From Candidatus Nomurabacteria bacterium (GTDB lineage Bacteria > Patescibacteriota > Minisyncoccia > Phycocordibacterales > UBA918), in contig CP060228.1 in NCBI GenBank assembly GCA_023898565.1, forward strand, positions 368,594-432,593: 64,000 nucleotides of DNA. The letters are read 5' to 3'. Shown here piece by piece: positions 1-42,996 of the stretch (positions are counted from its first letter, which is position 1; each line of letters starts with the position of its first letter). The notes below the pieces were generated by a model, which was given only the letters and a program-made list of their open reading frames with translations, had not been told where the DNA came from and searched no databases. The position numbers and the translations under genes were made by a program.

Positions 1-99
1 TTCAATCTTTACGAGCGCATCATCCCAAAGCTGCTTTACATCTACTTGTTCGGTATGAACGATACTGTTGGTTGATGCTGTGTGTGAGATAGGGTTCAT
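1..99 (-). CDS. dnaA: Chromosomal replication initiator DnaA, N-terminal fragment (gene continues beyond window start)
   Basis: Reverse complement of 1-99 translates to MNPISHTASTNSIVHTEQVDVKQLWDDALVKIE, which resembles a DnaA N-terminus. It is divergent from rpmH-rnpA-yidC, the conserved origin-region arrangement. Confidence 0.45.
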   Translation of the reverse strand, partial: MNPISHTASTNSIVHTEQVDVKQLWDDALVKIE

Positions 100-315
100 A
101 ATCTAGGTGAATCGAACGGTGATTTGCATTATACCGCCGTGTGAAAAACTGTAAACAAGTTGACGAAAATATTTACCAATCAAAGCACATTTTTTGTTTC
201 AAAAAATGCAACTGTGTATAACTTGTGTATAAGAAGGTGTTAGATTTTTAAGAAATCTCTTCCCTATTGAAATATTTATATATTCCTGTATAGTTCTCGT
301 TACTAAAACACAGTT
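100..315. promoter_or_regulatory. Putative oriC / DnaA-box region between dnaA and rpmH
   Basis: AT-rich intergenic region with two tandem TGTGTATAA repeats at 214-222 and 225-233, one mismatch from the DnaA box TGTGGATAA. An AT-rich tract at 271-295 could be an unwinding element. The position between dnaA and rpmH is the classic origin location. Confidence 0.35.
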
Positions 316-465
316 ATGTCAAAAAGAACCTATCAACCAAGTAAGCGCAAGCGAGCAACAACCCACGGTTTTTTGGTGCGTTCAGCATCACCGACTGGTC
401 GCAAGATTATCCGTGCTCGTCGTCGTAAGGGCCGCGCACAACTTACTGTAAAAAAAGCTCGTTAG
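316..465 (+). CDS. rpmH: 50S ribosomal protein L34
   Basis: Translates to [49 protein letters not shown], a canonical L34. It is absent from the ORF track because it is under 60 aa. Confidence 0.9.
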
Positions 466-491
466 AGCTTTTTTTGTTAGACTAGTGAGAT

Positions 492-812
492 ATGTTTAAA
501 AAGCGCGAACGATTAACAAGGTCTGAATTTCAGGAGTATTTTAGGACGGGTACTAGACATCACAGTAAGCATGTAACACTCATCACCGCCACTTCATCTA
601 AAAGAAAAGTGGCGGTTGTAGTTGGTAAAAAAGTCGCCAAGAGTGCAGTAAAGCGGAATCTATACAAACGTAGGATTTTTGGGGTGTTACAAACTATCCC
701 CTGCACTGGAGTGTTGATTGTGATTGTAAAACCAACGTTTGCTACATTATCGCGCAAAACAGCAGCTGTAGTGCTAACGACTGAGGTTGCTCGGGTGTGT
801 AAAAGTGCGTAG
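492..812 (+). CDS. rnpA: Ribonuclease P protein component
   Basis: 106 aa basic protein with RnpA-like sequence (ERLTRSEFQEYF, KRNLYKRRIF), directly downstream of rpmH. Confidence 0.8.
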   Translation: MFKKRERLTRSEFQEYFRTGTRHHSKHVTLITATSSKRKVAVVVGKKVAKSAVKRNLYKRRIFGVLQTIPCTGVLIVIVKPTFATLSRKTAAVVLTTEVARVCKSA

Positions 813-824
813 AATAAGCCCACT

Positions 825-1553
825 ATGTTCAGTTTTATTTGGCACACGTTTTTCTTTGACCCGATTTATAACGCGCTGGTCTTTTTTATTGATGTTATTC
901 CTGGCGGTGACGTCGGTCTCGCTATTATTTTGACGGTACTTTTAGTAAAGACTATTCTCCTCCCTCTCTCGATTAAAGCTGCTAAAACCCAGCGAATTGT
1001 ACGTGAGATTGAGCCAAAATTGAAAGAGCTCAAAGAAAAGCATAAAGATGATAAACAACAGCAAGCGCAAGCAATGATGCTGGTTTATAAGGAAGCAGGA
1101 ATGAATCCATTTGCGAGTATTGCGCTAGTATTTTTACAGATTCCAATTGTGATTGCTTTGTATTTAGCAGTGTCTCGTGGTGGCGGGGTGCTTCTACCAG
1201 ATATTAACCTAGCGATACTCTATCCTTTTGTGGCGGCACCGCTTGAGGTGACGATGCATTTTCTTAACCTGATAGATATTACCGAGCGAAGTCTATTTTT
1301 GGCGATTGGAGCTGGTGTTACACAGTATGTATATGTTCATCTCACTATGCCCAAGCTTCCGCCGCGAGAAGCAGGTAAGGTGCTTGATATGAAAGAGGAG
1401 TTCATGCGGAATATGCAAACACAAATGAAGTATGTCATGCCATTTTTGATTGTGTTTATCTCGTACTCAATTTCTGCTGCAATTGCGCTCTACTTTATGG
1501 TGAGTAATCTAGTATCAATTGGACAAGAATATTTTGTGCGTAAACACCGGTAG
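825..1553 (+). CDS. yidC: Membrane protein insertase YidC/Oxa1 (short form)
   Basis: Multi-TM protein in the conserved rpmH-rnpA-yidC order. It has the YidC-like amphipathic and charged loop KLKELKEKHKDDKQQQAQAMMLVYKEAGMNP. Confidence 0.8.
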   Translation: MFSFIWHTFFFDPIYNALVFFIDVIPGGDVGLAIILTVLLVKTILLPLSIKAAKTQRIVREIEPKLKELKEKHKDDKQQQAQAMMLVYKEAGMNPFASIALVFLQIPIVIALYLAVSRGGGVLLPDINLAILYPFVAAPLEVTMHFLNLIDITERSLFLAIGAGVTQYVYVHLTMPKLPPREAGKVLDMKEEFMRNMQTQMKYVMPFLIVFISYSISAAIALYFMVSNLVSIGQEYFVRKHR

Positions 1554-1608: not shown

Positions 1609-2349
1609 CTAAATTGCATCGTAATAGCAGAAATTACGACCAGTGGTTGCGTCCGTAAAAAAGACTCCATTAAGTGTGCTTAAACTGCTGGTGCAGTGTG
1701 ATTTTGCAGCACTAAGTTCCATTGTTCCATAGTCATCTTTGATATTTTTTCCAGCAGGCCAGCTAAGACATACTGATCCATTTGGTCCAGAGTATAATTT
1801 TTGTTGTGGCGAGAGTGATGAAATTTTTGCTGGGCAAGAGTTGCTGAATAGTATTTGTTGCTCATTTCCAGCTGATGCAGGCATGGTTTTTGCAGTGACT
1901 CCTGAGGTCGGTGTGGTGGTGGTTATTTTGCTGGTATCAAGGGTTGTTGGAGTGGCTGCTGATCCAGAGTATGTTTTGTTTTTTAGGTGGTCAAAAGTTA
2001 GATTAACATTGGCTGTGTCAGGGTTTACTACGGTTAGAATCAAGACTGCTGCAAGAACCAGCAAGAGTCCAATTAGTGCCCCTTGAATATCCTTCTTTGC
2101 TTCCCCTTTTGAGGTTACTACATCAGTCATCATCCACTTCACTCCAGCGATGATAATCTTAATTACAGCTAGTAGAGCGGCAATGGTGATTGAAAATACA
2201 TAGAGCGCATTAATGTAGCTGTCAAAATCATTGTTTGCATCAACACCAGGAATACCAACAAGTGGGCGGTATACTGTCGGTTCAGCAGCAAAAATGGTGA
2301 GCGGTAAGCTAAGTAGTGCAGTGGCAGTGAGAGTGAATACTTTTTTCAT
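1609..2349 (-). CDS. T4SS pilin-like protein (VirB2/TrbC topology) fused to a Thr-rich linker and a Cys-containing C-terminal domain
   Basis: Signal peptide, then two hydrophobic helices separated by a charged loop (ALYVFSITIAALLAVIKIIIAGVKWMM / TDVVTSKGEAKKDIQ / GALIGLLLVLAAVLILTVV). This is classic VirB2/TrbC pilin architecture. It is followed by a TTTTPT linker and a ~110 aa domain with 4 Cys. Confidence 0.45.
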   Translation of the reverse strand: MKKVFTLTATALLSLPLTIFAAEPTVYRPLVGIPGVDANNDFDSYINALYVFSITIAALLAVIKIIIAGVKWMMTDVVTSKGEAKKDIQGALIGLLLVLAAVLILTVVNPDTANVNLTFDHLKNKTYSGSAATPTTLDTSKITTTTPTSGVTAKTMPASAGNEQQILFSNSCPAKISSLSPQQKLYSGPNGSVCLSWPAGKNIKDDYGTMELSAAKSHCTSSLSTLNGVFFTDATTGRNFCYYDAI

Positions 2350-2359
2350 ATGTAATTGA

Positions 2360-3538
2360 CTATTGCTCGTTACTAAACATCCATAAGTTACCTGTCGCTG
2401 TGTTGGTAAAGTAAATATGAGTGTCGTCTAGATTTGGCACTATCTCCGAGACTTCAATATTTCGTCCAGTTTCTGAACTAATGTCAACCAATTGCGTAAA
2501 TACAGCATTCTCTAAATCAAAGCTCCAGAGATTATCACTGAAGGTTGCTTCACCTTTGTACCAAAGATCAGGCATCTGATTTGAGTTTACATCACTGCTA
2601 CTACCACAAATCAATGCTGTAGTGGTGTACAGCGGCGAACATTTTTCAGGGATAGTACTGAGGAAAATATTGTTTGTCTCTCCAGTCTCTTCATTATACA
2701 AGTATGTATTGTAGCTGCCTTTTTCTTGCTTGCTGTACAACACACCAACACTGTTTCCTGTAGCTGAAATTCCGTAGCCAGCAGCTGGTAAGCGATGTAG
2801 TACACCATTTTTGCTGGCGTACACATACCCCTCAAATTGATTGGTTGCCTTTGGGTACACATAATGAGTTTCGTCCGCAGTTGATCCCCAATCAATAACA
2901 GCTTCTCTAAATGGAACAGTAAAGAGTGTCTTGGCTGTATCGCTTACAGGGTCATATTCTTTTGCGATTACAGTAGCGTTTGTTTTAACTGCGTACAAAA
3001 ATGTGTTATTGGTGGTAACACTGAAGTCTATAATTGGTTCAGTAATAGCTTTAGTCTCAAGTTGATCGGTTGAGCTGCTTAGGGTTCCAATTACAAAATC
3101 TGCACCAATTCCACTACCAGACTGGACAAGTACGTATAATCCGTTAGGCGTAATCGCAGCTTTGAAACTTGAAGGAATAGTGGTAGCTGAGATGCGCTTT
3201 TCCTCCCCTGTTTCAAGATTTAGAGCAAATATGTATCCGGTTCCGGCTGCTACGTAGTATACCGACGGCGATGAGCTCGCATTTTTTTTAACTTCCTGAT
3301 ATCCCACTACTGGTGTGGTGGTTAGTTGACGAAGTCGTTCAGGACCTTCGATATCAACGACAGGTTGTTCGTCATTTTGTATTGGTTCGTATGAGTTACT
3401 GGTGGTATCTCCTAAGTCAATAGTAGTGTAGGTATCATCAGTGCTGTTTGGGTTGCTAAAGAGAATAATGTACACCCAAACTCCTAGTAAAATAAGTACA
3501 ATGATTGCTCCAATAATGATGAAAAGTGGCCGTTTCAT
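2360..3538 (-). CDS. Membrane-anchored hypothetical protein (N-terminal TM, beta-rich extracytoplasmic domain)
   Basis: 392 aa ORF with an N-terminal TM helix and Ser/Thr/Gly/Tyr-rich repetitive beta-like sequence. It sits in the T4SS-like gene run. Confidence 0.5.
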   Translation of the reverse strand: MKRPLFIIIGAIIVLILLGVWVYIILFSNPNSTDDTYTTIDLGDTTSNSYEPIQNDEQPVVDIEGPERLRQLTTTPVVGYQEVKKNASSSPSVYYVAAGTGYIFALNLETGEEKRISATTIPSSFKAAITPNGLYVLVQSGSGIGADFVIGTLSSSTDQLETKAITEPIIDFSVTTNNTFLYAVKTNATVIAKEYDPVSDTAKTLFTVPFREAVIDWGSTADETHYVYPKATNQFEGYVYASKNGVLHRLPAAGYGISATGNSVGVLYSKQEKGSYNTYLYNEETGETNNIFLSTIPEKCSPLYTTTALICGSSSDVNSNQMPDLWYKGEATFSDNLWSFDLENAVFTQLVDISSETGRNIEVSEIVPNLDDTHIYFTNTATGNLWMFSNEQ

Positions 3539-3541
3539 AGA

Positions 3542-4510
3542 CTAGAAATTAACTTGGGTTGCACCTATCGCGCCTTGTAACACTTGGGTTGTATCTCGTA
3601 CATGGAAGCTGAGGTTGAGCACGCCACCAGATCCAGTGCGCTCTAATGTAACTTCGTAAGGGTTTCCTCCTCCAGTTTCAGCTATGGTATTCCCGAGCGT
3701 CCACTCAGTAATGGCAGGATTGTTATAAACCCTTGAGTCAAGGTAGTATGGCTCAGCTGCAACGACCAGGCTATTACCGATGAGTGAGATGCCTTCAGAA
3801 AGGGTTTTTTTACTCATACCAAAGAGAGCACTTACCTCATAGAAATGAATCTCTGGAGCAACTGAGGGGATTGAAATTGATCGGCTGGCAATGACACTGC
3901 CGTCAAGCGTAGCAACTTGGACACTGAGTGTTTCGTTGCTGTTGTTTGTGGTGGTAAATGAAACTTGATTGCGGCCACGGAGTGACCCCCCTTCTATAAC
4001 TTGTTGGCCAAATCGCCATGTGTAGATAAGGTCTGGGTTGCGAAAACCAGCGCCACTAATGAGTGCAGTAGCATTGACGGTGCTGCCAATGCTCGGTAGT
4101 GCTCGTCCAAGATAGTTTTCTGGAACGTGTGTTTGTGGCTCGATGATAATATCGAGGTAGATTGGCCGAATAACTGTCTGTAATGACTCTCGGCCACCGC
4201 CAGAGCGGGTTAAAATTACTTCAACTGATTGTGTTGTGCCGAGAGCGCCAGTCGTTACTTTCGCCTCGCGTTTATTTTCTGCCTCAGGAATAACTCTGCC
4301 GTCTAATACCCAGGTGATGTTTGCGCCGTAGCTACTTCCTCGGTAATCATTAATTGATAGTGTCACCTCTTCTCCTGGTGCTGGATATTTTGGTTGTATT
4401 TCAATACCAAATTCTGGTTGAGTGAAGGTGTTGTTGCTACTAAACTGCGCTGAAGCTGGAATGGCAGCAAGGCTTAAAATAAATATAAAAGTGGTGACGA
4501 TTGTCCGCAT
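3542..4510 (-). CDS. Secreted hypothetical protein
   Basis: 322 aa ORF with signal peptide MRTIVTTFIFILSLAAIPASA. No recognisable catalytic motifs. Confidence 0.5.
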   Translation of the reverse strand: MRTIVTTFIFILSLAAIPASAQFSSNNTFTQPEFGIEIQPKYPAPGEEVTLSINDYRGSSYGANITWVLDGRVIPEAENKREAKVTTGALGTTQSVEVILTRSGGGRESLQTVIRPIYLDIIIEPQTHVPENYLGRALPSIGSTVNATALISGAGFRNPDLIYTWRFGQQVIEGGSLRGRNQVSFTTTNNSNETLSVQVATLDGSVIASRSISIPSVAPEIHFYEVSALFGMSKKTLSEGISLIGNSLVVAAEPYYLDSRVYNNPAITEWTLGNTIAETGGGNPYEVTLERTGSGGVLNLSFHVRDTTQVLQGAIGATQVNF

Positions 4511-4643
4511 ATTAGTAATAATAACAGACGTGAATATGGTTTTGCGTGTTTAATAACCATATTATGTGGGGAAAGTAATCGGGTATATATTCTGTATAAA
4601 CAGCCTATTTTTTGAGGATAGACTGTGGAAATGGTGTGGAATA

Positions 4644-5654
4644 CTATTTTGGATTCTTCCAGACCGCTAATGTCCAGAAAATTGCCCACGGGAGTAGGTT
4701 GAAGATTGGTATTGACAGGCCGATGAATGCTAAAAGCAGCATGATTGGTTTCTGTCCCGAATTTCGCCCAAAAATCGGATTTATGAAAGTGAATTTATAA
4801 ATGAAGTATATAATCAAAAGTTGCAGGAGGAAGAGTCCTAGAAAAAGTCCGTATACTGCAAAAAACATACCTCCTGGGTGTAGATTTCCTAGATCAAATC
4901 CAAAAAATGTTTCACTAATGTAGTTTATTACTTCAAAAATGCTACTAAACACTTTTTTTGCCATGTTGAGTAATGTCACACCAAACCCTCCCGCTTTTTC
5001 TGATTCTACGCTACCGCTGCCAAAGATACTATCAACAGCAATACCAACTCCAAAAAAGACGGCAAGTAAAATACCAAGCGGAAGTTGTATAAAGATGTAG
5101 GCCGGAATCGACCATGACCAGATACTGTATGTTACTGTTGTGGCTTTGAGTTGTTTTGCGCTACGACGAAGAGTACTTGGTTTTCCGACGTGCCGCATTT
5201 GTTGTAGTTTTTTTAAACTACTCTTTCTGCGTGGCTGTGCAAATTCCTCTTCTTCAATGAAGGGTCGTTCTTCTTCAGGTGAGAGCTCTGGTGTTGGTGT
5301 GGCGTTTTGTGTCTCTCCAAGCTGAGTTGGCTGCATGCCTTTAGTGGCGTACTCAGCGATGAAGGCCTCATCAACTGTTTTCCGGTCGCTTCCCCGCTGG
5401 TTTCTTGGTGCACCAGGCATTGCAGAGGTACGAACGTTCTTCGTGATATTCCTTTGCAGAAGATCGCTACGGTCAGCTGAAGTACGTCTTACGCTGCCAG
5501 GCGACGGAACAGTGTTTTTGTTTTGAGTGCTAACATTTCGAATTGTTGATGATTGCCTTGCTAGGCCAATTTTGGTACCGAACTTTGCATCATTAACAGC
5601 TCCGCTAGTAGAGGTTTTTTCTACATTTCTAATTGCGTTTTCGCCAGCTGCCAT
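4644..5654 (-). CDS. Hypothetical polytopic membrane protein (disordered basic N-terminus, ~4 TM C-terminus)
   Basis: 336 aa ORF with a low-complexity Ser/Arg/Thr-rich N-terminal half and a hydrophobic multi-TM C-terminal half. It lies in the T4SS-like cluster. Confidence 0.45.
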   Translation of the reverse strand: MAAGENAIRNVEKTSTSGAVNDAKFGTKIGLARQSSTIRNVSTQNKNTVPSPGSVRRTSADRSDLLQRNITKNVRTSAMPGAPRNQRGSDRKTVDEAFIAEYATKGMQPTQLGETQNATPTPELSPEEERPFIEEEEFAQPRRKSSLKKLQQMRHVGKPSTLRRSAKQLKATTVTYSIWSWSIPAYIFIQLPLGILLAVFFGVGIAVDSIFGSGSVESEKAGGFGVTLLNMAKKVFSSIFEVINYISETFFGFDLGNLHPGGMFFAVYGLFLGLFLLQLLIIYFIYKFTFINPIFGRNSGQKPIMLLLAFIGLSIPIFNLLPWAIFWTLAVWKNPK

Positions 5655-5669
5655 ATTAGTAGCAGTATA

Positions 5670-7466
5670 CTACATTCGTGAAGCTTGCAGTTCTTCTCGA
5701 GCACGCTTAATTTGGAGGAGTTGCGATGGATCTGAGGTGATGATTTGATCTTCAGTGTACGACGCTATCACTTTTAATGCTACGTGTTTTAAGCCTGCAA
5801 AGAAGATACCCTCCCCTACGTTTGATTCTAAAAGCAAGAACTTTTCCTCGTCAGTGAGATTGAATGTTTTTTGAATATTATCAATCGCGGTTGGTGACTG
5901 CTTCATTAAGAACTGGATTGAAGAGTTGGTGATCATCGGCACTCCATATGGTGAGCGAAGGAAGTCGTCCACATCCTGGGTTATGGTGGCGATACCGAGA
6001 TAGTATTTTCGACCACGTTTCGCAAGAGAGAAGAGGAATGAAGCGGTGTCTTCGGATTTCATCATCCACCATGCCTCATCGATTACCATGAGACGTCTTG
6101 CAACGCGCCGTCTGATTGAGCTCCAAATGAAGTTGGTAATGATATACATCGCGATGGTTTTTAGCTCATCTTCCATGTCACGGAGAGAAAACACTACAAA
6201 CTTTTGGTTGATGTCGACGTTGGTTGGCTTATTCATGAAGCCGGCCCAAGTACCCGAAGTATACTTTTGCAGTCGGGTGATAAGTGAAGAGCTGCCGTCC
6301 ATACCAGCTAATACCATTTCGAAGTCAGTCAAAAGCGGTGGTTCCATGTCTCCAAAGTCAGCATCACCGGTGATGTCTTTGAGGGCGTATGTTTCTTGAA
6401 TGGCAAGATCGATTAACGTTTCTTCTTCTGGAGTGAGGCCGCCGAGCATAAGACGGAAAAGGCCTACTAGTTCAATCACATGAGTACGCAGCACATCGTG
6501 CGGATCCTCGTCCTCACTTGGCGGTGGTAGGTCAAATGGATTTACATGGTGGTTTGAAGAGAGTGAAATATTAAAGAAACGACCGCCAGTCGCGTCAGCT
6601 AAATATTCATATTCTCTTTCTGGGTCGAGCACAATAACCTCGGTCCCAAACATAAGCGAACGAAGGATTTCGAGTTTAAGGCCGTATGACTTCCCTGCTC
6701 CAGAGGTGGCGAAAGTCACTGAGTTATAGTTGGTAAGACTGTAGCGGTCGAAAAGTACGAGCGAAGAGTTGTGGCGGTTAATGCCGTACAAAATGCCAGT
6801 GTCCGCGGTTAGGTCGAATGAAGTAAATGGGAAAAAACTTGAAAGTGGTTCTGAGTTGAATTTGCTATGCACCAACAGTTCATCATTGGCGAGCGGCAAA
6901 ATACTCTTGAGTCCTTGCTCTTGTTGGAATAGAGCTGGTTTTACTGCTACGAGACGTGAGTCAAGGATGCCGCGAATTTCATTTTCTACTTTATTGATTT
7001 CGCTTTCGTTTTCGCCGTAAATAGAAAGATAGAAACCAACGTTAAAAAGCCGCTCTTCCGCTTGTTGTAGTTTATCGCGCAGATCTTCTAGGTTGCGATA
7101 CGCTGCTTCAAGTTGCGGGTCGCGTACTTCCCCTTTTTCAGCTTTGATATTGATTTGGCTCTGTACTTCGGCTACTTTCTTTTGGAATTTTTTGAGCGTT
7201 TCAGCTGTGTCGATGGGGTGTACGAAGATTGATACATCTAATTCTTTGGCTAGGTTTAGGACTGGTTCAATCCAGCCATCATTTAGAAAACGCGGGTATG
7301 AAACAGCATAATACACACGAGCATTAATGCCGCTGATGTTAATGCTGCGGGGAGTGATGCTGATTGCTGACGGTGCGATGATGTCGGTTAGAGTGAGTAG
7401 CTGATCGCTCACTTTCTCCTCATTGTTTCCGGTTGATTTTGGTTGTAGTGAATCTAAAAGGCCCAT
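5670..7466 (-). CDS. virB4: VirB4/TrbE/TraC-family conjugal-transfer ATPase (C-terminal 598 aa, contains the ATPase domain)
   Basis: Walker A FATSGAGKSY and Walker B RLMVIDEAWWMM. The overall sequence pattern is that of VirB4/CagE/TrbE ATPases. Confidence 0.8.
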   Translation of the reverse strand: MGLLDSLQPKSTGNNEEKVSDQLLTLTDIIAPSAISITPRSINISGINARVYYAVSYPRFLNDGWIEPVLNLAKELDVSIFVHPIDTAETLKKFQKKVAEVQSQINIKAEKGEVRDPQLEAAYRNLEDLRDKLQQAEERLFNVGFYLSIYGENESEINKVENEIRGILDSRLVAVKPALFQQEQGLKSILPLANDELLVHSKFNSEPLSSFFPFTSFDLTADTGILYGINRHNSSLVLFDRYSLTNYNSVTFATSGAGKSYGLKLEILRSLMFGTEVIVLDPEREYEYLADATGGRFFNISLSSNHHVNPFDLPPPSEDEDPHDVLRTHVIELVGLFRLMLGGLTPEEETLIDLAIQETYALKDITGDADFGDMEPPLLTDFEMVLAGMDGSSSLITRLQKYTSGTWAGFMNKPTNVDINQKFVVFSLRDMEDELKTIAMYIITNFIWSSIRRRVARRLMVIDEAWWMMKSEDTASFLFSLAKRGRKYYLGIATITQDVDDFLRSPYGVPMITNSSIQFLMKQSPTAIDNIQKTFNLTDEEKFLLLESNVGEGIFFAGLKHVALKVIASYTEDQIITSDPSQLLQIKRAREELQASRM

Positions 7467-7475
7467 ATGTGTAGC

Positions 7476-8114
7476 TTAATTATCAATAACCGGTGCTGAT
7501 CCAGTCGGATCGCCTGGGTTGTAGAGGTGGTAATAGAGTTCAACGAGGTCGTCTTTTTGTAGGGTGATAGTGCGGACGCCGACACGAGCGAGTCCTTCTG
7601 TTACCATGCCAACACGCTGTTCAAGTTGGATGCGATGTTCTTCAAATTGTGTATCGCTCGGGAGAGACGATCGATTTTGTCCAGGAGTGAAGAGGCTGGT
7701 GAGTCCTTTGGTAATACTTAACTTGGTTGGAGTATACGGCACAACCACAAAGAAGCTTTTGCTCATTACATCAACATCCTGTGTGAACGTGCGGATAAAC
7801 TCCATATACTCGCGAAGCTGCACGCGCATAAGGTCATTGTCCTGCCCTGCCTCCATTCCAGAGAGAAGGTCTAAATACGGCTCAATATTGAGACGGCGAG
7901 ATTGTACATAAATTTGTAGGGTAAAATCGAGGGTGTTGAGAAATTGTTGAAATTGCAACAAAATTACCTTTTGCTCATCGAGTGATTTAAGGGCGAAATT
8001 GACTGACGACGCCAAAAGCACCATATGCATCTGGCCATTCTTTTGCATCACCACATTATCGTTAATGTCGCGAATCGAAACAAAATCTTGAGTTGCTGCT
8101 TTTGGATTTGCCAT
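7476..8114 (-). CDS. VirB4 N-terminal region encoded as a separate 212 aa ORF
   Basis: The ORF is in the same frame as the 598 aa VirB4 ORF and separated from it only by TAA plus three codons. Together they total ~813 aa, a typical full-length VirB4. The sequence pattern fits VirB4 N-terminal regions; this is inference. Confidence 0.45.
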   Translation of the reverse strand: MANPKAATQDFVSIRDINDNVVMQKNGQMHMVLLASSVNFALKSLDEQKVILLQFQQFLNTLDFTLQIYVQSRRLNIEPYLDLLSGMEAGQDNDLMRVQLREYMEFIRTFTQDVDVMSKSFFVVVPYTPTKLSITKGLTSLFTPGQNRSSLPSDTQFEEHRIQLEQRVGMVTEGLARVGVRTITLQKDDLVELYYHLYNPGDPTGSAPVIDN

Positions 8115-8115
8115 A

Positions 8116-8529
8116 TTATTGTTCGGTCTTTTGGATTGCTTGTAATTCTAGTCGTCTCGCCAAAGAAGCGATGTTTTTCTTCTTTCCTGCACCGGCTGGT
8201 CCATCGCCGGTTGTTTGTGCTGCTGGTGCTGAATTTTTATGTACTACATCTTCATTGCGTCGCCAGAGGTATAGTTTTTGTTTGGTGATGTAGTTGAAGA
8301 GTGCTTCCAAGAAAAATGAGAAAGGGCGATTGTTAACAGGATAGAAAGAAAGTGCTCCAGACAACAGCGCGATTGGAATACCGAGTAGTGTAAACACTAC
8401 TAAGTTGGTGGTAATAAACAAAACTACTGCCATACCAAGTCCGCCACCGAGGTATAAGAATTGTCGCCAAGTAAGTGGGCCGAATATCTTGTCTTCTATT
8501 TCAATAAACTGTGGCACCTCAAAACGCAT
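8116..8529 (-). CDS. PrgI/VirB3-like small membrane protein
   Basis: 137 aa with N-terminal MRFEVPQFIEIEDKIFGPLTWRQFLYLGGG followed by two TM helices. This is the architecture of PrgI-family (VirB3-like) proteins, and it is immediately upstream of VirB4. Confidence 0.45.
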   Translation of the reverse strand: MRFEVPQFIEIEDKIFGPLTWRQFLYLGGGLGMAVVLFITTNLVVFTLLGIPIALLSGALSFYPVNNRPFSFFLEALFNYITKQKLYLWRRNEDVVHKNSAPAAQTTGDGPAGAGKKKNIASLARRLELQAIQKTEQ

Positions 8530-8715
8530 ACACCACCATTATACATGGTGGTGGTGCGTTGGTGTTATGTTGGTGTGCTTACTATCCCCATGAAGGAGCA
8601 CCATCTGTTCCTTCAGCCCACACTTCATAATTGTTCACACGTCCGATGTTTGCTGATTGATTCAGGCACTCATTCCCTGCGGACGCTCGCACTTATGAAG
8701 CGTGGGCTGAAGAGA

Positions 8716-9177
8716 TTAGCGCCCCGTTCGCCCTTCTTTTAGGATTGCTTCTTGAGTCGATGAGTAAACGGTCTCTTCGTTGCCTTGAAGCTTGGCTATA
8801 TCACCCGCCATGGTGCGGACTTGGGGATTTGGCTTTGCTGCTAGATTGCTGGGCTCTGGCGGTACTTGGTCTTTTGCTTCGGCAAGCATTTTCCCATCCA
8901 TGAAATCAATCAAGTCTCCGGTTATTTGTAGGGCTACTTGAGCAGTAACACCAACTTCTGCCTGGAGTGATTGTGGTAATTCAGAGCGGCGACGTAGGCC
9001 AAGCACCGTGTCGCCGGTGATTAACACCAAATGTGCAGTTTTCATATCTCCGAGCTGGTACTTTTTGGCAATAGTCTCTAAGCGCTGGCTACTTTCAGGT
9101 GAACTGCAGAGTTGTTTGGTTGACTCGGACGCTGCTTCATAGGCAGCGTCTCGTTGTTCGTTAGTGATTATTGGCAT
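8716..9177 (-). CDS. Hypothetical cytoplasmic protein in the T4SS-like cluster
   Basis: 153 aa ORF with no TM segments and no recognisable motifs. Confidence 0.4.
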   Translation of the reverse strand: MPIITNEQRDAAYEAASESTKQLCSSPESSQRLETIAKKYQLGDMKTAHLVLITGDTVLGLRRRSELPQSLQAEVGVTAQVALQITGDLIDFMDGKMLAEAKDQVPPEPSNLAAKPNPQVRTMAGDIAKLQGNEETVYSSTQEAILKEGRTGR

Positions 9178-9185
9178 GCTGGTTT

Positions 9186-11546
9186 TTACCTAGTGATCGG
9201 GTTTCCGTTTTGGTCTACGATTGGGTTGCCGCTATTTTGTGACCCCTGAGATTGATTGTTGCCGGTGTTATTCCCGACGGTGTTCCAGTTGCGGGCAGCG
9301 TTAAAGTTGGTGGTGATGTACTGCTTTGCGCTACTATTCTGGCCGCTTAAGATTGCGTCTCGGAGCTGATCGCGCTGTGCTGGGTCAAGCTTCTTATAGA
9401 GCTCATCCATATGTTTTGACTCAAGCTTGTTGATGGCTTCTGGGTTGTTTATGTAGGCTTCAAACGGCACAGCAGCAATCTCAGCTGGCTTACGATCGGC
9501 AAAGAAGGTTTCAAGTTCAGCGCCTTTAAATGCTTCAATCATCTGCTTTTTCCGGGCTCCCTGGTAATCGCCCTTCTGTCCGTCGGTGAAATTATCGCTC
9601 TTCATCAGGTCATCCATTTGCTTTTGGGTGAAGCGGTGGGCGTTTTCGCGAACAAAGTCATCACCGAGGTTTTCAATCTGCTTAGTGGTGAGGTTTTCGA
9701 GAGCTTTAAATGACACTTCCCCATTCTTTTCAACGGCTGCTTTTAGTGCATTTGTGCGAATAGTAGCGAGGTGATCTTTTTGTTCCTGATTGAAGTTCTT
9801 GCTGTTTGCCAAAGACTCATACTGTCCACCCTTAAGTTGACCAACAATCTCAGTGAAGTCGTCGGTGCGCTGGGTGAACATACGTTCAAGCTGTTCAGAA
9901 GTAAGACTGCCGATCTTGCTCTGCATAGCAGCCACGGTTTTGTTCATTTCTTTCATTTCATCAGCTGAAAGCTCAGGAACTTCCTGTGCTGCCCGCATTT
10001 CGGCCACCTGTTCTTGTAGTTTGAGGCGCTCTTCCATATCAATGTGTTCACCGCCCATTTCTACATCACCCCCAGCTAGCTTAGCTTCAGCTGCTTGACC
10101 TTCTTGAACGAGGCGTGCGCGATTTTCGTGTAGGTAGAGGTTGCGTCGTGCGTCAATTCCTTCAGCCACAACATCATTGGCACCAACTTGTGCGTTGATA
10201 GTGTCTTTGCGATTTTGTTCCTCGTCGCGAGTATATTTCATGCCAAACTTGGCGTTCTTGAGCTTGGTGCTACCCTCTCGGCGTAGATCATCAACCACTA
10301 CGCTATTTCCAACTTTTCGAGCCAATTTTCCAGCTACTGTGTTTTTGTTGGCATTTTGCATGCGGGAGATTTGTCGATCAAGAGCGGCTCCAGTGGCGTA
10401 TGAAAGTCGTCGCGCCCCCCGTCCGGCAGTGTTAGCAGCAGCAGATTTGGTGGTTCTGATGGCTGCACGCTGCAGGCTGCGCTGTGCCCGGCCCTGCAAA
10501 TTTTTACCAAAACCAATCATTGTTGAAGCGCCGTCTGCTCCCATTTTATTAGCTACTACTACAGCAGCAATCATAAAGATACAAGCTAACATGAATGGTG
10601 GTAGTGTTGAGCCAAAATTAGTTAAAGTTGCGCTTCCCATTCCAGAAAAAGTTTCTGGATAGTTTGGCTTCTGTCCATTAACACTCATAACTTTTGCCCA
10701 GGCATTAAGCAGGTAGATAGAGAAATAGACTAAAAGCAGGTAGATTGGTGCAAAAAATGATCTACCCAAAAACCCATGCCAGTACTTGCTGGTGATACTA
10801 GACATTTGTGGGAACACCCAGCTTAAGAACATTAGTGGTGACAGCACCATGTACAAACAGAGTGCTGCGTAGCGTATAAAAAGCATAATGGCGCCAGCTG
10901 CAAATACGAAGGCTGTCACAATAAACAGAATCATTGCGCCAAAAATGTACGCATAACCGGCTCCGTCAGTTTCAGTTTTTGGCATGGCGCTATCACCAGT
11001 GCTCAGAATATTTTGAATGCCGAAGGTGTCCATAAAACCAAGGCTAACAGTGAGGTCGCCAGTGCTAGCATCCTTTGGGAAGCCCTTAGCAATTTGGGTG
11101 GCCATGATGTTTGAAAAGTCGACAACTGTTTTGGTGATGTAGAGACTGAAGTTTACGAGGAGAGCGGCCATGATAAGGCTTACGAGCCAGCGTCGAGTAC
11201 CAGGATCATCGCTATTTAAAATCATCTTCAGACCAATAAAGACCAGGCCAAAAATGAAAGTGATGTTAAAAATATCACGTACTGCTACCCAGAGAATATC
11301 TACGGCGCCACCAATACCGCTGGTGAGAAAGTTGGTTCCAAAGCCAACGACGTACTCGTTGACACCCCAGTCAAGCGCAAGCCCTGCCAGACCAACTAAA
11401 CGGCCGAAGAATCCAACCACTAGACTCCACAAAGCCTGCTGGAACCAAGGAGCTTCACTTCCCTGTGCAAAGGACAACAGTGGAACAAGCATCAGCAGCG
11501 TGACGAGGATGGTGATTATGGTGATGTGGTGGGTTCGGCTAGACAT
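9186..11546 (-). CDS. VirB6/TrbL-like polytopic membrane protein with a long coiled-coil / low-complexity C-terminal extension
   Basis: 786 aa. The N-terminal ~350 aa contain multiple TM helices typical of VirB6/TrbL. The C-terminal ~400 aa are charged and Gln/Ala-rich, ending in an Asn/Gly/Gln-rich tail. Confidence 0.5.
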   Translation of the reverse strand: MSSRTHHITIITILVTLLMLVPLLSFAQGSEAPWFQQALWSLVVGFFGRLVGLAGLALDWGVNEYVVGFGTNFLTSGIGGAVDILWVAVRDIFNITFIFGLVFIGLKMILNSDDPGTRRWLVSLIMAALLVNFSLYITKTVVDFSNIMATQIAKGFPKDASTGDLTVSLGFMDTFGIQNILSTGDSAMPKTETDGAGYAYIFGAMILFIVTAFVFAAGAIMLFIRYAALCLYMVLSPLMFLSWVFPQMSSITSKYWHGFLGRSFFAPIYLLLVYFSIYLLNAWAKVMSVNGQKPNYPETFSGMGSATLTNFGSTLPPFMLACIFMIAAVVVANKMGADGASTMIGFGKNLQGRAQRSLQRAAIRTTKSAAANTAGRGARRLSYATGAALDRQISRMQNANKNTVAGKLARKVGNSVVVDDLRREGSTKLKNAKFGMKYTRDEEQNRKDTINAQVGANDVVAEGIDARRNLYLHENRARLVQEGQAAEAKLAGGDVEMGGEHIDMEERLKLQEQVAEMRAAQEVPELSADEMKEMNKTVAAMQSKIGSLTSEQLERMFTQRTDDFTEIVGQLKGGQYESLANSKNFNQEQKDHLATIRTNALKAAVEKNGEVSFKALENLTTKQIENLGDDFVRENAHRFTQKQMDDLMKSDNFTDGQKGDYQGARKKQMIEAFKGAELETFFADRKPAEIAAVPFEAYINNPEAINKLESKHMDELYKKLDPAQRDQLRDAILSGQNSSAKQYITTNFNAARNWNTVGNNTGNNQSQGSQNSGNPIVDQNGNPITR

Positions 11547-11552
11547 AGTGCG

Positions 11553-13322
11553 TTATGGTAGGATTGCGTCCCACTCAGTTTTTGAATTTGTAATATCAGC
11601 TTGTGTGTACAAGTCTAACTTCTGATAATCAGCAATGTAGATTATTTTGAGAGATTCTGAGCTAGCTGCTTCGTAGTTGGTGATAATATCAGTCAGCTTT
11701 GTAATCAGAGTGTTGGTTGTGTCGATAATATTTTGTGCATCGCCGGCAGCGGCAGTTGCGATGCTTGATGAAGCTGCTGGTGTGGTTGATGCACTGGCGT
11801 AGGTCTCAAGTTGTGGTTTGTAGAGCGAAGCGAGGTTCTTGTAGTCTTTTTGAGTTTGTAAATCAGCTTTCATTTGTACCAAAGTAGAATCTACGCTTGA
11901 AGCAGCTGCCTGATTAGCCGTAGTGATCACCGCGTTCCAAGAGCTCTTTGAAGCGTTTATGTCTGATTGTGTATGAAGTGGTAAGGCAGAATAGTCTTCC
12001 ATAACCTTAGCTTGGTCAGTAGCGTTTGTTGCTGCTGAATAATCAGATATTTGACTGTTTAGGTTCAACAAATTGCCTGTGGTGTCAGCAATAACGGTAT
12101 CGGTTTCAATGATAGCTGCGTTGGCAGCGGCTACAACAGAGGCTGAGGCGGTCGTGCTGGCTGCGATTGCTTGAAGTTCAATCTTTTTTGCGATGGCTAA
12201 ATCTCGATAGGCGATTTCGAGATCACGCGCATCTTCAAGTATTTTGAGGCCAGAATTAGCGGAAACAACTGAACTTTCAGACTGCATTTGTGCCAAGTAT
12301 GAGCCGCCGCTGAAGCCGGAATAGGTGAAGCCGGTTCCGCCAGAGAGGCCGAGCAGGCCAGCGGCTCCAGTAAACACAGTTTGTGCGAGCTGACCAAGTA
12401 GAGCAGAGATAATCTCGTTCATTTCATCAGCGGTAACGAGTGATTGACGGCCAGAGTCGAGGTTGAAAGAAAGTGCCTCTTCAATAATTTTCCCGGGCTT
12501 AGTGATGGCACATTCTTCAGTGTCACCATTGGCACCGCTTACTATTTGGCAGATTTCACCAGAAAGGAACCCATCTCCCCACTCGAGCTTAAATGCTTCT
12601 TCTCCCTTAGCATTTAGAATGCGCACGTGAGCACCAGTCTGGGCCGCTAACGTAGCACCATAGGGAGTGTAGGTCTCTGGCTGGGCGGTGATGTCAAACC
12701 AGTCATTCCAGCCACCTTCTCCGAAACTACCCTGTGCTCCGTCGAGGAAGCCGCTGATATTATCGATAATCCCTGAGAGGGTACAGGTTGGGGCTGGTTG
12801 GTCGACGCGGGAGCGTTGATATTGAAGCGCTAGGGCGATTTGGATATCGAGCTTGAACGGGTCACAAAGGAAAGAGCCAAGGCCACCAAGGTTTTGAATA
12901 TATTCCCCCATCACCCTGTCTGCAACGTCAGTTAGGAATCTAGACAAATCTTGTACAAACATTGGACTGCCTTTGAAGCCGGAGTTTATCCAATTCACCA
13001 GACTATCTACCATTGAAGAAATCACCGCTTTAGCAAGGGTCCAAGCGATGCTATCAAGCACGCTTTCCTTAATCCAAAGATTTTCTGTTGCCCACGACGT
13101 GACGTATGACCATCCTTCAATCAGCGTGTTCAAGGCATTAATAAAAATAAGTTCAATATTGTTGAACACTTGGGTGTGCTCTGTTGCCCTATCAACAGCT
13201 CCCCCCGCGTGTGCGTATTGAACCTTGTTCCAGTCCTGTGGAGTATAAGTCGCAGCTACGGCAAAAATCATAAAAATTGATGTAACAAGGACTTTCTTTA
13301 GGTATGTAAAAAAGGTTTCCAT
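11553..13322 (-). CDS. Large secreted or membrane-anchored hypothetical protein with an Ala/Ser/Thr-rich C-terminal region containing an internal repeat
   Basis: 589 aa with an N-terminal hydrophobic segment. Two related ~26 aa segments occur near the C-terminus: EDYSALPLHTQSDINASKSSWNAVI and ADYQKLDLYTQADITNSKTEWDAIL. Confidence 0.5.
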   Translation of the reverse strand: METFFTYLKKVLVTSIFMIFAVAATYTPQDWNKVQYAHAGGAVDRATEHTQVFNNIELIFINALNTLIEGWSYVTSWATENLWIKESVLDSIAWTLAKAVISSMVDSLVNWINSGFKGSPMFVQDLSRFLTDVADRVMGEYIQNLGGLGSFLCDPFKLDIQIALALQYQRSRVDQPAPTCTLSGIIDNISGFLDGAQGSFGEGGWNDWFDITAQPETYTPYGATLAAQTGAHVRILNAKGEEAFKLEWGDGFLSGEICQIVSGANGDTEECAITKPGKIIEEALSFNLDSGRQSLVTADEMNEIISALLGQLAQTVFTGAAGLLGLSGGTGFTYSGFSGGSYLAQMQSESSVVSANSGLKILEDARDLEIAYRDLAIAKKIELQAIAASTTASASVVAAANAAIIETDTVIADTTGNLLNLNSQISDYSAATNATDQAKVMEDYSALPLHTQSDINASKSSWNAVITTANQAAASSVDSTLVQMKADLQTQKDYKNLASLYKPQLETYASASTTPAASSSIATAAAGDAQNIIDTTNTLITKLTDIITNYEAASSESLKIIYIADYQKLDLYTQADITNSKTEWDAILP

Positions 13323-40373: not shown

Positions 40374-40441
40374 AAAGCTATTCTAGCAGAAAACCATTGA
40401 TTTTTCGCCATATACCACGTATGATGATGACCACAGAAATG

Positions 40442-40513
40442 CACCCATGGTGAAATGGATATCACAACTGACTTCGGATCAGTCGTTCTGGGTTCGAGTC
40501 CTGGTGGGTGCAC
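40442..40513 (+). tRNA. tRNA-Arg (anticodon TCG)
   Basis: Manual fold: acceptor GCACCCA/TGGGTGC, D-stem GTGA/TCAC, anticodon stem ACTGA/TCAGT with loop CTTCGGA. Followed by a terminator hairpin at 40521-40549. Confidence 0.75.
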
Positions 40514-40548
40514 TAATAATAAAAACCAGCAATAGATGCTGGTTTTTA

Positions 40549-40833
40549 TTATTCCCGTCTCTCCTGCTTGTTCTTATGTAGCACGAGCAGCAGTACGGCC
40601 AAACAGCCAACGAAGTTTATTGATGCGACCGTGAATAGCAGCCAATCCTCAACGGCGGTATAGATATATAGAACTGAAATAACGCTTGTGTAGGTCCAAA
40701 TTGTCCAGCTTGGAGTTGAAAAATTTTTCGCCGCCCCACTGGTGGTAAGCAGCTTTGTGATTTGCGGAAGATACGCCATTAGTGCGAATAAGCTGTTGCC
40801 AGCATAGAGCCACGTAATAATCTCAAGTGTCAT
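40549..40833 (-). CDS. Small 3-TM membrane protein, PQ-loop / SemiSWEET-like
   Basis: 94 aa, three hydrophobic helices, with a PQ motif (AYLPQITKLL) in the first helix. Confidence 0.35.
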   Translation of the reverse strand: MTLEIITWLYAGNSLFALMAYLPQITKLLTTSGAAKNFSTPSWTIWTYTSVISVLYIYTAVEDWLLFTVASINFVGCLAVLLLVLHKNKQERRE

Positions 40834-40910
40834 ACATTAATCCTAGCATGAGTCCTAGTGTTAATTAGTAAAAGGAAACATATGTATGTAGTATATAATA
40901 TACAGTATTT

Positions 40911-41585
40911 ATGGTTCGAAATGAGGCAATGATGGAGCAGGTGCGAGGCTTGCGCTCTCGGGGCTTTACGCTTGCAGAGATTGCCAAGTATTGTGGTGTT
41001 TCAAAGTCAACGGTTTCAAAATGGTTGAAAAATAACGCTCTTTCAGGTGAAGTGACTAAGCAAAATAAGCGTCGGGCGGGCCAAGAAAATGCTAAGCGAC
41101 TAAAGCTTATTAACAAGGCTCGTGGTTCCGAACGTGCTTTGCGGCTTGCTGAGCAGCTGAGGACCGCTGAGACGGAGTATAAGCACTACAAGCAAAACGC
41201 CCTCTTTATGGCCGCTATAGCTATATATATGGCCTCTGGTGACCTCAGTGAGGGTGGAACGATCAGGCTTTCGACTAAACGCAGTGAAGTGCATGCAATT
41301 TTCATACGCTTTGCTGAGGAGTACCTAGGTGTCACAAAAACAAAGGTGCGATTCTGGCTACTGTTGCATGAAACACATGATGAAGAACGGTGTATGAAGC
41401 ATTGGAAAAAGAAAACTCGCCTCACCTACCAGCAGTTCAAGAAAAATCAGGTGCTGAAGAGTGGCGTCTCACAAAAACCATTGCATTATGGCGTAGGAAA
41501 TACTATAATCGGCAGCACAGTTTTGAAGCAGAAGCTTAGCCACTGGATTAAGCTATCTGTGAAAGATCTGTCAGCTTTAAAGTAA
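40911..41585 (+). CDS. Hypothetical HTH DNA-binding protein
   Basis: N-terminal HTH (GFTLAEIAKYCGVSKSTVSKWLKN). The stop codon abuts the first base of tRNA-Gly. Confidence 0.4.
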   Translation: MVRNEAMMEQVRGLRSRGFTLAEIAKYCGVSKSTVSKWLKNNALSGEVTKQNKRRAGQENAKRLKLINKARGSERALRLAEQLRTAETEYKHYKQNALFMAAIAIYMASGDLSEGGTIRLSTKRSEVHAIFIRFAEEYLGVTKTKVRFWLLLHETHDEERCMKHWKKKTRLTYQQFKKNQVLKSGVSQKPLHYGVGNTIIGSTVLKQKLSHWIKLSVKDLSALK

Positions 41586-41656
41586 GCGGCCATGGTTAAG
41601 TGGTATAATGAGTCCTTGCCAAGGATTAGTCGGGAGTTCGATTCTCCCTGGCCGCA
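41586..41656 (+). tRNA. tRNA-Gly (anticodon GCC)
   Basis: Manual fold: acceptor GCGGCCA/TGGCCGC, anticodon stem AGTCC/GGATT with loop TTGCCAA, T-loop TTCGATT. Confidence 0.8.
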
Positions 41657-41809
41657 CATCGCAAATATTCTCGTGAAAAGCACCTGTAAAACAGGTGCTT
41701 TTCACATGGTGGTAACTGTGGATAAAACAGTGGATAGGTGGATAAAGGACAATCCACAGTTCTCAAGTATATCTGTCTTTTATAAAGGACAGTGCTATAA
41801 TTAAAGCTA

Positions 41810-42545
41810 TATCGGCACGTGGTTGTGATTCCTTAGATACAAAAGACTTTTGACGTGCCACGTGAAACGTTACCTATAGTTACACATGAAACAAGACCAG
41901 AAACAGGGTGATAAAAACAAAACGGGAGCAATTGGTGAGCAAATTGCAGCTAATTACCTTAAACGACAAGGTTTTACCGTTATTGAGGTAAATTACCTTA
42001 AAAAGTGGGGAGAAATTGATATTGTTGCACGTGGCACAGAAAAAATACACTTTATTGAGGTAAAAACAGTTTCATATGAAACAAAACAGCAGTTGCGCAC
42101 TGCAATTTCACGTGGAACTTGGCGACCAGAAGAGAATGTTCACTATAATAAGCTCCAAAGACTTAATCGTGCTATTGAATCGTGGCTAATCGAAAATAAC
42201 TCGACTGCTGACTGGCAGATAGATATTATCGCGGTAAGAATTGTTACACGTGAAAAGGCCGGGACGATAAAGTATATTCCTAACGTTATTTTGTAGATGT
42301 GTGTCACATGAAACGCCATGATCATCGTTTCGTGTGTAACGGTGCTATACTGGTTTCATATGGAACAGTCTTTTCTAGGAAAGTATCGCCACTACAAAGG
42401 AGGCATGTATGAAGTTAGTGGTATAGCGAAACATTCAGAATCACTAGAATTGAGGGTATTCGACAGCCTAGGTTCGCAAGGCTGAATGAGTATGCGTGAG
42501 TGTGTTCCATGTGTAACTAAAGTAGTGTTTCACGTGAAACAAATT
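41810..42545. repeat. Array of at least 11 copies or half-copies of a 14-bp palindrome GTTTCAYRTGAAAC, over and flanking the YraN-like gene
   Basis: Perfect palindromes GTTTCATATGAAAC (42069-42082) and GTTTCACGTGAAAC (42527-42540). Variants at 42327, 42353, 42504, 42243 and 42106. Half-sites CACGTGAAAC (41859) and CACATGAAAC (41883, 42305). Confidence 0.5.
41886..42296 (+). CDS. YraN/UPF0102-family (PD-(D/E)xK-like) endonuclease
   Basis: IGEQIAANYLKRQGFTVIEVNY ... GEIDIVAR ... IHFIEVK matches the conserved YraN motifs. Confidence 0.55.
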   Translation: MKQDQKQGDKNKTGAIGEQIAANYLKRQGFTVIEVNYLKKWGEIDIVARGTEKIHFIEVKTVSYETKQQLRTAISRGTWRPEENVHYNKLQRLNRAIESWLIENNSTADWQIDIIAVRIVTREKAGTIKYIPNVIL

Positions 42546-42881
42546 CAGTTGTGCTGCTGTCATTATCCGAGTGTGGAGCGGCCCCGTGCTCAAGCCAGTC
42601 CGTAGTGACATTAGTGATAACTGCTACAAATTTATGTGCTACTAAGCTGTTTGGGTTAACTGGAGTTGAGGCTCGTGTGCTGTAGAAGTAGTGGGTTGGT
42701 GTAGATTAAGACTCGCTTTTTTTAAAGATAGATGGTATATTTTGCGAACTTAAATCACGTAAGGTGGTTTTGGTCGAGTGATTCGCGGCTGGTAGCTGTC
42801 TACAGTCGTGAGAGTGTAAGTAAAACTTCCGCTCCTCGTTCGAAGCTTAGATGTAAGTAACCTTCCATTTATCTTCTCACT

Positions 42882-42952
42882 CGGGGTGTAGCATAATGGT
42901 AGTGTACGCGGTTTGGGACCGTGTGGCCCGGGTTCGATTCCCGGCTCCCCGA
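42882..42952 (+). tRNA. tRNA-Pro (anticodon TGG)
   Basis: Manual fold: anticodon stem CGCGG/CCGTG with loop TTTGGGA, T-arm CCGGG-TTCGATT-CCCGG, acceptor with one T-T mismatch. Followed by a terminator at 42958-42994. Confidence 0.65.
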
Positions 42953-42996
42953 CAACAAACATAAAAGCCTCAGGATTCTGAGGCTTTTATGTTAGG

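Follow-up and report, generated by a model that had tools for sequence, protein, structure and literature searches.

A dense cluster of parS-like sites in and around yraN is the probable centromere of a Candidatus Nomurabacteria chromosome

The chromosomal parS sites of ParABS systems, of the type read by Spo0J in Bacillus subtilis and ParB in Caulobacter crescentus, are copies of a 16-bp palindrome, TGTTTCACGTGAAACA, and lie in the neighborhood of the origin, with most model species carrying a handful of them over tens to hundreds of kb. This string recurs across published papers; it is quoted as the "consensus parS" by Jalal et al., and a review of ParB proteins gives it for several species in a Table where the parS consensus is written tGTTNCACGTGAAACa (PMC7022226). 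In the case of Myxococcus xanthus, which has a 9.1-Mb genome and the consensus TGTTCCACGTGGAACG (PMC7022226), 22 parS sites form a dense tandem array near oriC within a 3.12-kb fragment. Corynebacterium glutamicum has a single cluster, parS1-10, which extends over 35 kb at a distance of 73 kb from oriC, where it is both the tip of the folded chromosome and an SMC loading zone; nine of the ten sites are intergenic, with parS1 inside trpCF, and no ParB was recruited at sites with three or more mismatches. The sopC centromere of the F plasmid consists of 12 tandem repeats of a 43-bp unit, each with a SopB site, next to sopAB; a single partition complex is nucleated on these many closely placed sites, which are bound by a ParB-family protein. 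A further palindrome read by a ParB-family protein is the Noc-binding site (NBS; TATTTCCCGGGAAATA), which has a similar half-site architecture and differs from parS at half-site positions 1 and 6 (Jalal et al.). A literature search for parS or ParB work on Patescibacteria, CPR, Parcubacteria, or Saccharibacteria found nothing relevant.

The window analyzed here is a 64-kb stretch of the 951,832-bp contig of a Candidatus Nomurabacteria bacterium, and its features are collected in Table 1. An initial annotation, made from the letters alone, had described at least 11 full or half copies of one palindromic motif, in intergenic DNA as well as inside a yraN-like coding sequence. The count stands, being made up of ten sites with at most two mismatches, the more degenerate site at 42024, and two outlying partial copies (CACGTG, the core alone, at 41816 and half of a site at 41700), and the site positions confirm that copies lie both between genes and within yraN, the identity of which is borne out by Pfam and NCBIfam models. 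Both of the perfect palindromes it named, at 42069 and 42527, are present, and the yraN start codon at 41886 does fall within a copy. The density claimed for the motif is likewise well above chance: searching the 64-kb window for the 14-mer GTTTCAYRTGAAAC with up to two mismatches gave 13 matches, ten of them inside 41855-42540, compared with a mean of 1.03 and a maximum of 5 in 100 dinucleotide shuffles of the window, none of which reached 13. The array also holds six of the seven CAYRTGAAA strings in the window, eight of its nine CAYRTGDAAC strings, and six of its 15 CACGTG hexamers.

Table 1. Features of the window at the origin-proximal end and at the yraN locus, in window coordinates. Mismatches of sites are to the 14-bp core unless stated; the last column gives the share of 70 non-redundant relatives with a site of at most two mismatches at that position.
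Feature	Coordinates	Strand	Sequence and context	Relatives with site
dnaA 5' end and dnaA-rpmH intergenic region	1..315	-	two TGTGTATAA boxes (213-232); marks oriC region	
Clade-specific HTH protein, ~222 aa	40911..41585	+	syntenic with array; not ParB-like	
tRNA-Gly(GCC)	41586..41657	+	followed by terminator hairpin 41673-41705; left border of conserved block	
DnaA-box cluster	41717..41759	-	TGTGGATAA, AGTGGATAG, GGTGGATAA, inverted ATCCACA	
Extended -10-like promoter element	41794..41802	+	TGCTATAAT; read from sequence; upstream of first two parS-like sites and yraN	
parS-like site 1	41855..41868	.	GTGCCACGTGAAAC, 2 mismatches; between yraN promoter and start codon	
parS-like site 2	41879..41892	.	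GTTACACATGAAAC, 1 mismatch; holds yraN ATG (cACATGAAACA); encodes M-K-Q	
yraN (UPF0102)	41886..42296	+	Pfam PF02021 E = 4e-20; NCBIfam YraN models; hosts four parS-like sites, start codon within a fifth	
Degenerate parS-like site	42024..42037	.	GTTGCACGTGGCAC, 3 mismatches; in yraN, V-A-R-G-T	59%
Perfect 14-bp palindrome	42069..42082	.	GTTTCATATGAAAC; in yraN, V-S-Y-E-T	97%
parS-like site	42105..42118	.	ATTTCACGTGGAAC, 2 mismatches; in yraN, I-S-R-G-T	70%
parS-like site	42243..42256	.	GTTACACGTGAAAA, 2 mismatches; in yraN, V-T-R-E-K	61%
parS-like site	42301..42314	.	GTGTCACATGAAAC, 1 mismatch; 5 bp past yraN stop codon	
parS-like site	42327..42340	.	GTTTCGTGTGTAAC, 2 mismatches; 26 bp to each neighboring site	
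Second extended -10-like box	42341-42349		TGCTATACT; with parS-like site at 5' end of DUF1653 remnant ORF	
parS-like site	42353..42366	.	GTTTCATATGGAAC, 1 mismatch; just downstream of second -10-like box; over internal Met codon (42360, M-E-Q) of DUF1653 remnant ORF	
parS-like site	42504..42517	.	GTTCCATGTGTAAC, 2 mismatches	
Perfect canonical 16-bp parS	42526..42541	.	TGTTTCACGTGAAACA, 0 mismatches; contains palindrome GTTTCACGTGAAAC at 42527	

Judged by its sequence, the array motif is the core of the canonical chromosomal parS. The last site of the array matches the 16-bp consensus exactly, and ten more sites lie within 0 to 3 mismatches of its 14-bp core. A matrix built from 584 sites in 83 related loci has the consensus tGTTNCAYRTGAAACa, which is the published parS consensus together with a frequent CATATG-centered variant. 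Its first half-site is G1 92%, T2 100%, T3 91%, T4 64% (with C at 22%), C5 98%, and A6 95%, and the center Y7/R8 is CG in 56% and TA in 43% of sites; the mixed position 4 is the known degenerate position of parS, and the bases on either side of the searched 14-mer, which are unbiased by the search, are T and A at 51% each. The initial suggestion of clustered sites for a dimeric DNA-binding protein holds and can be made more specific, the motif being the canonical site of ParB/Spo0J. The NBS was considered as a candidate and rejected, since its half-site (ATTTCCCGGGAAAT core) has A in the first position and C in the sixth, where the clade matrix has the G and A of the parS type.

In total the array comprises about 11 sites, two of them perfect and the others with one to three mismatches, at irregular spacing in which intervals of ~25 bp recur. 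Five of the 11 overlap the coding sequence of yraN, four lying inside it and the fifth over its start codon. With only two sites perfect, and given the failure of C. glutamicum sites with at least three mismatches to recruit ParB, some copies, the weakest ones, may be weak or nonfunctional. The two end modules of the array, 41855-41893 and 42503-42541, are inverted copies of each other (parS, ~10 bp, parS), with a 97% match over 35 bp in the strain variants L007-L011, which suggests duplication or gene conversion between the array ends.

The position of the array on the chromosome can be given relative to the origin. At the left edge of the window rpmH, rnpA, and yidC on the plus strand diverge from dnaN-dnaA on the minus strand, with dnaN-dnaA visible in the 10 kb to the left; the oriC region corresponds to window positions 1-1553 and to positions 6800-9608 of L104. 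The cumulative GC skew has its minimum in the dnaA-dnaN spacer and the skew is positive over the whole window. Because dnaA lies at the left edge and the skew minimum at dnaA-dnaN, the array is placed ~43.5 kb from oriC, or 4.6% of the contig, and it is therefore origin-proximal, which is the usual territory of parS. No second parS-like cluster was found in the 84 kb examined around oriC (the window and 10 kb on each side), and the array is for this reason the only candidate centromere seen. Directly beside the origin, on the minus strand at 1609-13322, lies a cluster of type IV secretion/conjugation-like genes, with a TraG/VirB4-like P-loop ATPase at 5670-7466 and, in identical contigs, PrgI-, TraC-, and TrbL-like products; several of its large ORFs have no Pfam match.

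Taken together, we consider it very probable that the array is the centromere of this chromosome, a dense ParB-loading cluster of parS sites that is partly dual-coded with yraN. By analogy with the established ParABS/SMC pathway, ParB dimers would recognize each palindrome through their HTH domains and would then close as CTP-dependent clamps and slide onto the flanking DNA. The partition complex so built, ~43.5 kb from oriC, would segregate the origin region, via ParA if present, and would load SMC, and having many sites in 0.7 kb would raise the rate of ParB loading at one point of the ~0.95-Mb chromosome. As for ParB itself, tblastn with approximate Spo0J and Soj queries found no parB or parA in the window and the 10 kb on either side of it, or in ~105 related loci. 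Because no parB lies in the 84 kb of the contig so covered, we infer rather than observe that the genome encodes a ParB that binds the array.

The same evidence bears on a group of explanations that we regard as most improbable, namely that this is a replication origin, whether iteron-type or secondary, or a target cluster for restriction-modification, or a side effect of repeated codons or peptides. DnaA boxes do adjoin the array, and its CACGTG and CATATG cores are of a kind that type II restriction enzymes typically recognize. An iteron-type origin, however, is made of direct repeats of a 17-22-bp Rep site by a rep gene at the start of replication, and here the repeats are palindromes that occur in both orientations, there is no rep gene, and the skew minimum is ~43.5 kb away, at dnaA-dnaN and not at the array. 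Of the earlier phrase "replication or partition-type iteron", it is accordingly the partition half that survives, with the motif being that of parS, and the iteron half that does not. The proposal of a restriction or methylation cluster also has to be given up: such targets would be constrained over 4-8 bp only, with avoidance or enrichment across the genome, but here 14-16 bp are conserved, not just a 6-bp core, and in dozens of species the array keeps to a single locus. The idea of codon or peptide repeats is countered by the sites themselves, half of which lie outside coding sequence, with frozen synonymous positions in the coding ones.

Indeed, there is DNA-level selection on the sites inside yraN, and in this stretch gene and centromere sequence are dual-coded. 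Identity at third codon positions reaches 0.82 within the sites, compared with 0.52 outside them (Mann-Whitney p = 3e-8). In the case of the 42069 site, where V-S-Y-E-T is encoded in the window by GTT TCA TAT GAA ACA, the codons of V62, S63, Y64, and E65 are fixed as GTT in 100%, TCA in 87%, TAT in 97%, and GAA in 100% of 70 non-redundant genes, compared with 30-80% for the major codon at other conserved residues. The residues of YraN that are invariant lie over sites (M1-K2-Q3, V47-A-R, V62-S63-Y64-E65-T66, and V120-x-R-E), and M1, K2, and Q3 are invariant in 33 close homologues. The YraN proteins of L075, L080, and L087 carry in-frame insertions of 10-24 codons that contain a second "VSYET", encoded by a further perfect GTTTCATATGAAAC, so that centromere sites within the gene appear to have been gained as translated insertions. 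Conversely, the YraN of the distant locus L001 is without these peptides and without internal sites. This, together with the codon fixation and the VSYET insertions, argues that the DNA element constrains YraN and not the reverse, a direction that follows also from the frozen synonymous positions and from the half of the sites that encode nothing. The dual coding therefore accounts for the invariant M-K-Q, V-S-Y-E-T, and V-x-R-E/G-x peptides of these proteins, and the invariance of MKQ and VSYET would reflect centromere sequence rather than catalytic residues, which matters for how conservation in YraN is read. More generally, the locus offers a clean natural example of dual coding in which an array of binding sites constrains a protein sequence. 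Downstream of yraN, the ORF at 42318-42485 is a truncated DUF1653 gene of 55 aa that matches profile positions 1-27 of 62; L017 has an intact 76-aa DUF1653 gene after yraN.

Throughout a whole class of Patescibacteria the sites have kept their positions, which answers the question of orthologous conservation raised at the outset. The orthologous set consists of 84 loci of related Patescibacteria in which YraN is 44-79% identical to that of the window. In the 80 of these loci that came from a metagenome scan (YraN 44-73% identical), 554 sites occur in 85.6 kb around yraN (6.5/kb), compared with 100 in 393 kb of flanking sequence (0.25/kb), at a mean of 7.2 sites per locus (range 2-10); the peptide EVKTVSYE was one of two seeds for the scan, and it biases the loci toward the VSYET residues at one site, though not toward a codon choice there or toward other sites. 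In four relatives with YraN 66-73% identical, examined over 12 kb each, all matches with at most two mismatches fall on yraN or within ~300 bp of it, at common offsets: two sites immediately ahead of the ATG or overlapping it, then +138, +183, +219, and +357, and two or three past the stop codon. A site at -21 to -32 from the ATG is found in most relatives, one at offset -7, the counterpart of 41879-41892, recurs among them, and sites downstream of yraN are present in nearly all. The strain-level contigs L002-L016 are 99-100% identical, with 12 SNPs in 1.4 kb and none in a 14-mer, and are too close to test conservation.

Scanning genome contigs added one distant locus, L001, from a Patescibacteria member whose YraN is 41% identical. 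It has six parS-like sites (764-1307) inside cca, the gene for the CCA-adding enzyme, and one perfect parS (2939) with two DnaA boxes ahead of yraN; the locus has been kept and the host gene of the array changed. In more distant genomes the array is extended or shifted upstream. In the window, tRNA-Arg(TCG), tRNA-Gly(GCC), and tRNA-Pro(TGG) bracket the HTH gene and the array (40441-42953), and L001, L017, L018, and L020 have this trio of tRNAs around the locus as well. Searches with Rfam returned only tRNAs at gathering thresholds, and only sub-threshold noise when E-value thresholds were applied to 41600-42900; the 336-nt non-coding stretch at 42545-42880 folds no better than its shuffles (z = -0.9).

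The HTH gene that precedes the array provides a second explanation, in which the palindromes are operators of its product, which would regulate yraN and its neighbors or replace ParB as the reader of the sites. The gene abuts tRNA-Gly with no spacer, it is found upstream of the array in 44 of the ~49 loci with enough upstream sequence and also in NCBI/JGI relatives, and no parB is seen near the array. In addition, an AlphaFold model of the protein (pLDDT 88) has an N-terminal HTH followed by a 50-residue helix, through which it could dimerize, and a C-terminal α/β domain. Against this, the site agrees over all 16 bp with the ParB site found across bacteria, down to the positions at which variation is tolerated, which makes it unlikely that an unrelated HTH protein has converged on it, the distance between gene and array varies from 259 to 4242 bp, the upstream region of the HTH gene has no such site, and the order tRNA-Arg, HTH, tRNA-Gly, yraN, tRNA-Pro may be merely ancestral. 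Pfam and NCBIfam assign the protein to generic HTH models only, a PDB profile search gave nothing, and the best match of the model in a Foldseek search of the PDB (E = 7e-3, TM 0.28) is not significant. Neither the profiles nor the structure model contain a ParB N-terminal domain, and the initial annotation's tentative suggestion of this protein as the binder is therefore not upheld. We consider the operator explanation very unlikely, and the HTH protein an unlikely reader of sites identical to parS, though its conserved synteny leaves room for some role at the array locus.

The region between tRNA-Gly and yraN is of interest in its own right, since it contains a DnaA-box cluster that includes TGTGGATAA, the sole perfect DnaA box (TTATCCACA) in the window. 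In 59 of 61 relatives, two DnaA boxes in the same orientation and spaced by 20 bp are found 100-200 bp upstream of yraN, and DnaA boxes there reach 5.2/kb, compared with 0.29/kb in the flanks. From its sequence, 41717-41759 may be a secondary DnaA-binding locus beside the centromere. An origin at this point, which the boxes might suggest, was rejected, with the skew switch lying at dnaA-dnaN instead. The -10-like element downstream of the boxes aligns with TGCTATAAT / TGCTATACT in L018 and L022; having no -35 match, it is missing from a consensus promoter scan. Between the DnaA boxes and the -10-like element, at 41745-41792, is a conserved 8-bp inverted repeat, AAAGGACA ... TGTCCTTT (TGTCTTTT in the window), which is also present in L017, L018, L020, and L022.

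With two parS-like sites between the -10-like element and the ATG, ParB bound there may also damp transcription of yraN. A precedent exists in Pseudomonas aeruginosa, where ParB at intergenic parS (parS3/4) represses adjacent genes (PMC7022226). This precedent, the position of the two sites, and the conserved pair of DnaA boxes directly upstream would fit a third explanation, in which the array serves chiefly for ParB-dependent transcriptional control or for control linked to DnaA, for instance by silencing yraN or as a DnaA-titrating, ParB-coupled checkpoint, and not as a segregation centromere. As the principal function we think this very improbable: for regulation 7-11 sites would be superfluous, as would those downstream of the gene, and the array is the one candidate centromere in the 84 kb around oriC. 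Control and centromere roles are, moreover, not mutually exclusive. A more ambitious version, which we put forward as speculation and find doubtful, is that tRNA-Gly, the DnaA-box pair, the promoter, the parS array in and around yraN, and the preceding HTH gene form, by function and not by historical accident, a composite centromere unit, fixed class-wide in Paceibacteria-like Patescibacteria, in which the loading of ParB, the binding of DnaA, and the expression of yraN, as a nuclease gene, are mechanistically coupled, for instance through DnaA titration or handover at the centromere, or through a nuclease dosage set by ParB occupancy. In its extreme form, the HTH protein and not a canonical ParB would read the sites.

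If the array is the centromere, it locates that element, and with the skew minimum on the dnaA side also the origin, in an uncultured candidate-phylum bacterium with a chromosome of ~0.95 Mb. As a landmark it would also be of practical use in orienting Patescibacteria assemblies and in reading Hi-C data, and the conserved DnaA-box pair beside it is a lead on the coupling of replication and segregation in minimal cells.

A parS centromere is an element of a known kind, and what is noteworthy here is the very high density of sites, their placement within the coding sequence of yraN throughout the class, and the conserved pair of DnaA boxes directly upstream. The array shares with the chromosomal parS of ParABS systems the same 16-bp palindrome, the same degenerate position, and proximity to the origin, but it differs from them in packing ~11 sites into 0.7 kb, in having the CATATG-centered variant as commonly as CACGTG, and in lacking adjacent parAB. 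Its sites share with the NBS a palindromic design read by the ParB family, though at the two distinguishing positions they are parS. In the case of F sopC, the likeness lies in the many close sites proposed to nucleate one partition complex, but sopC is a regular repeat of a different site, whereas the array described here is irregularly spaced, chromosomal, and without an adjacent par operon. The C. glutamicum cluster is similar in being single and away from oriC, and its parS1 shows that genic sites such as those in yraN have a precedent; the density here is ~50 times higher, however, and five of the 11 sites are over coding sequence. Finally, the M. xanthus array is comparable as a dense chromosomal array of parS near oriC, from which the one described here differs in being laid over a conserved protein-coding gene, with the dual-coding constraints that this brings.
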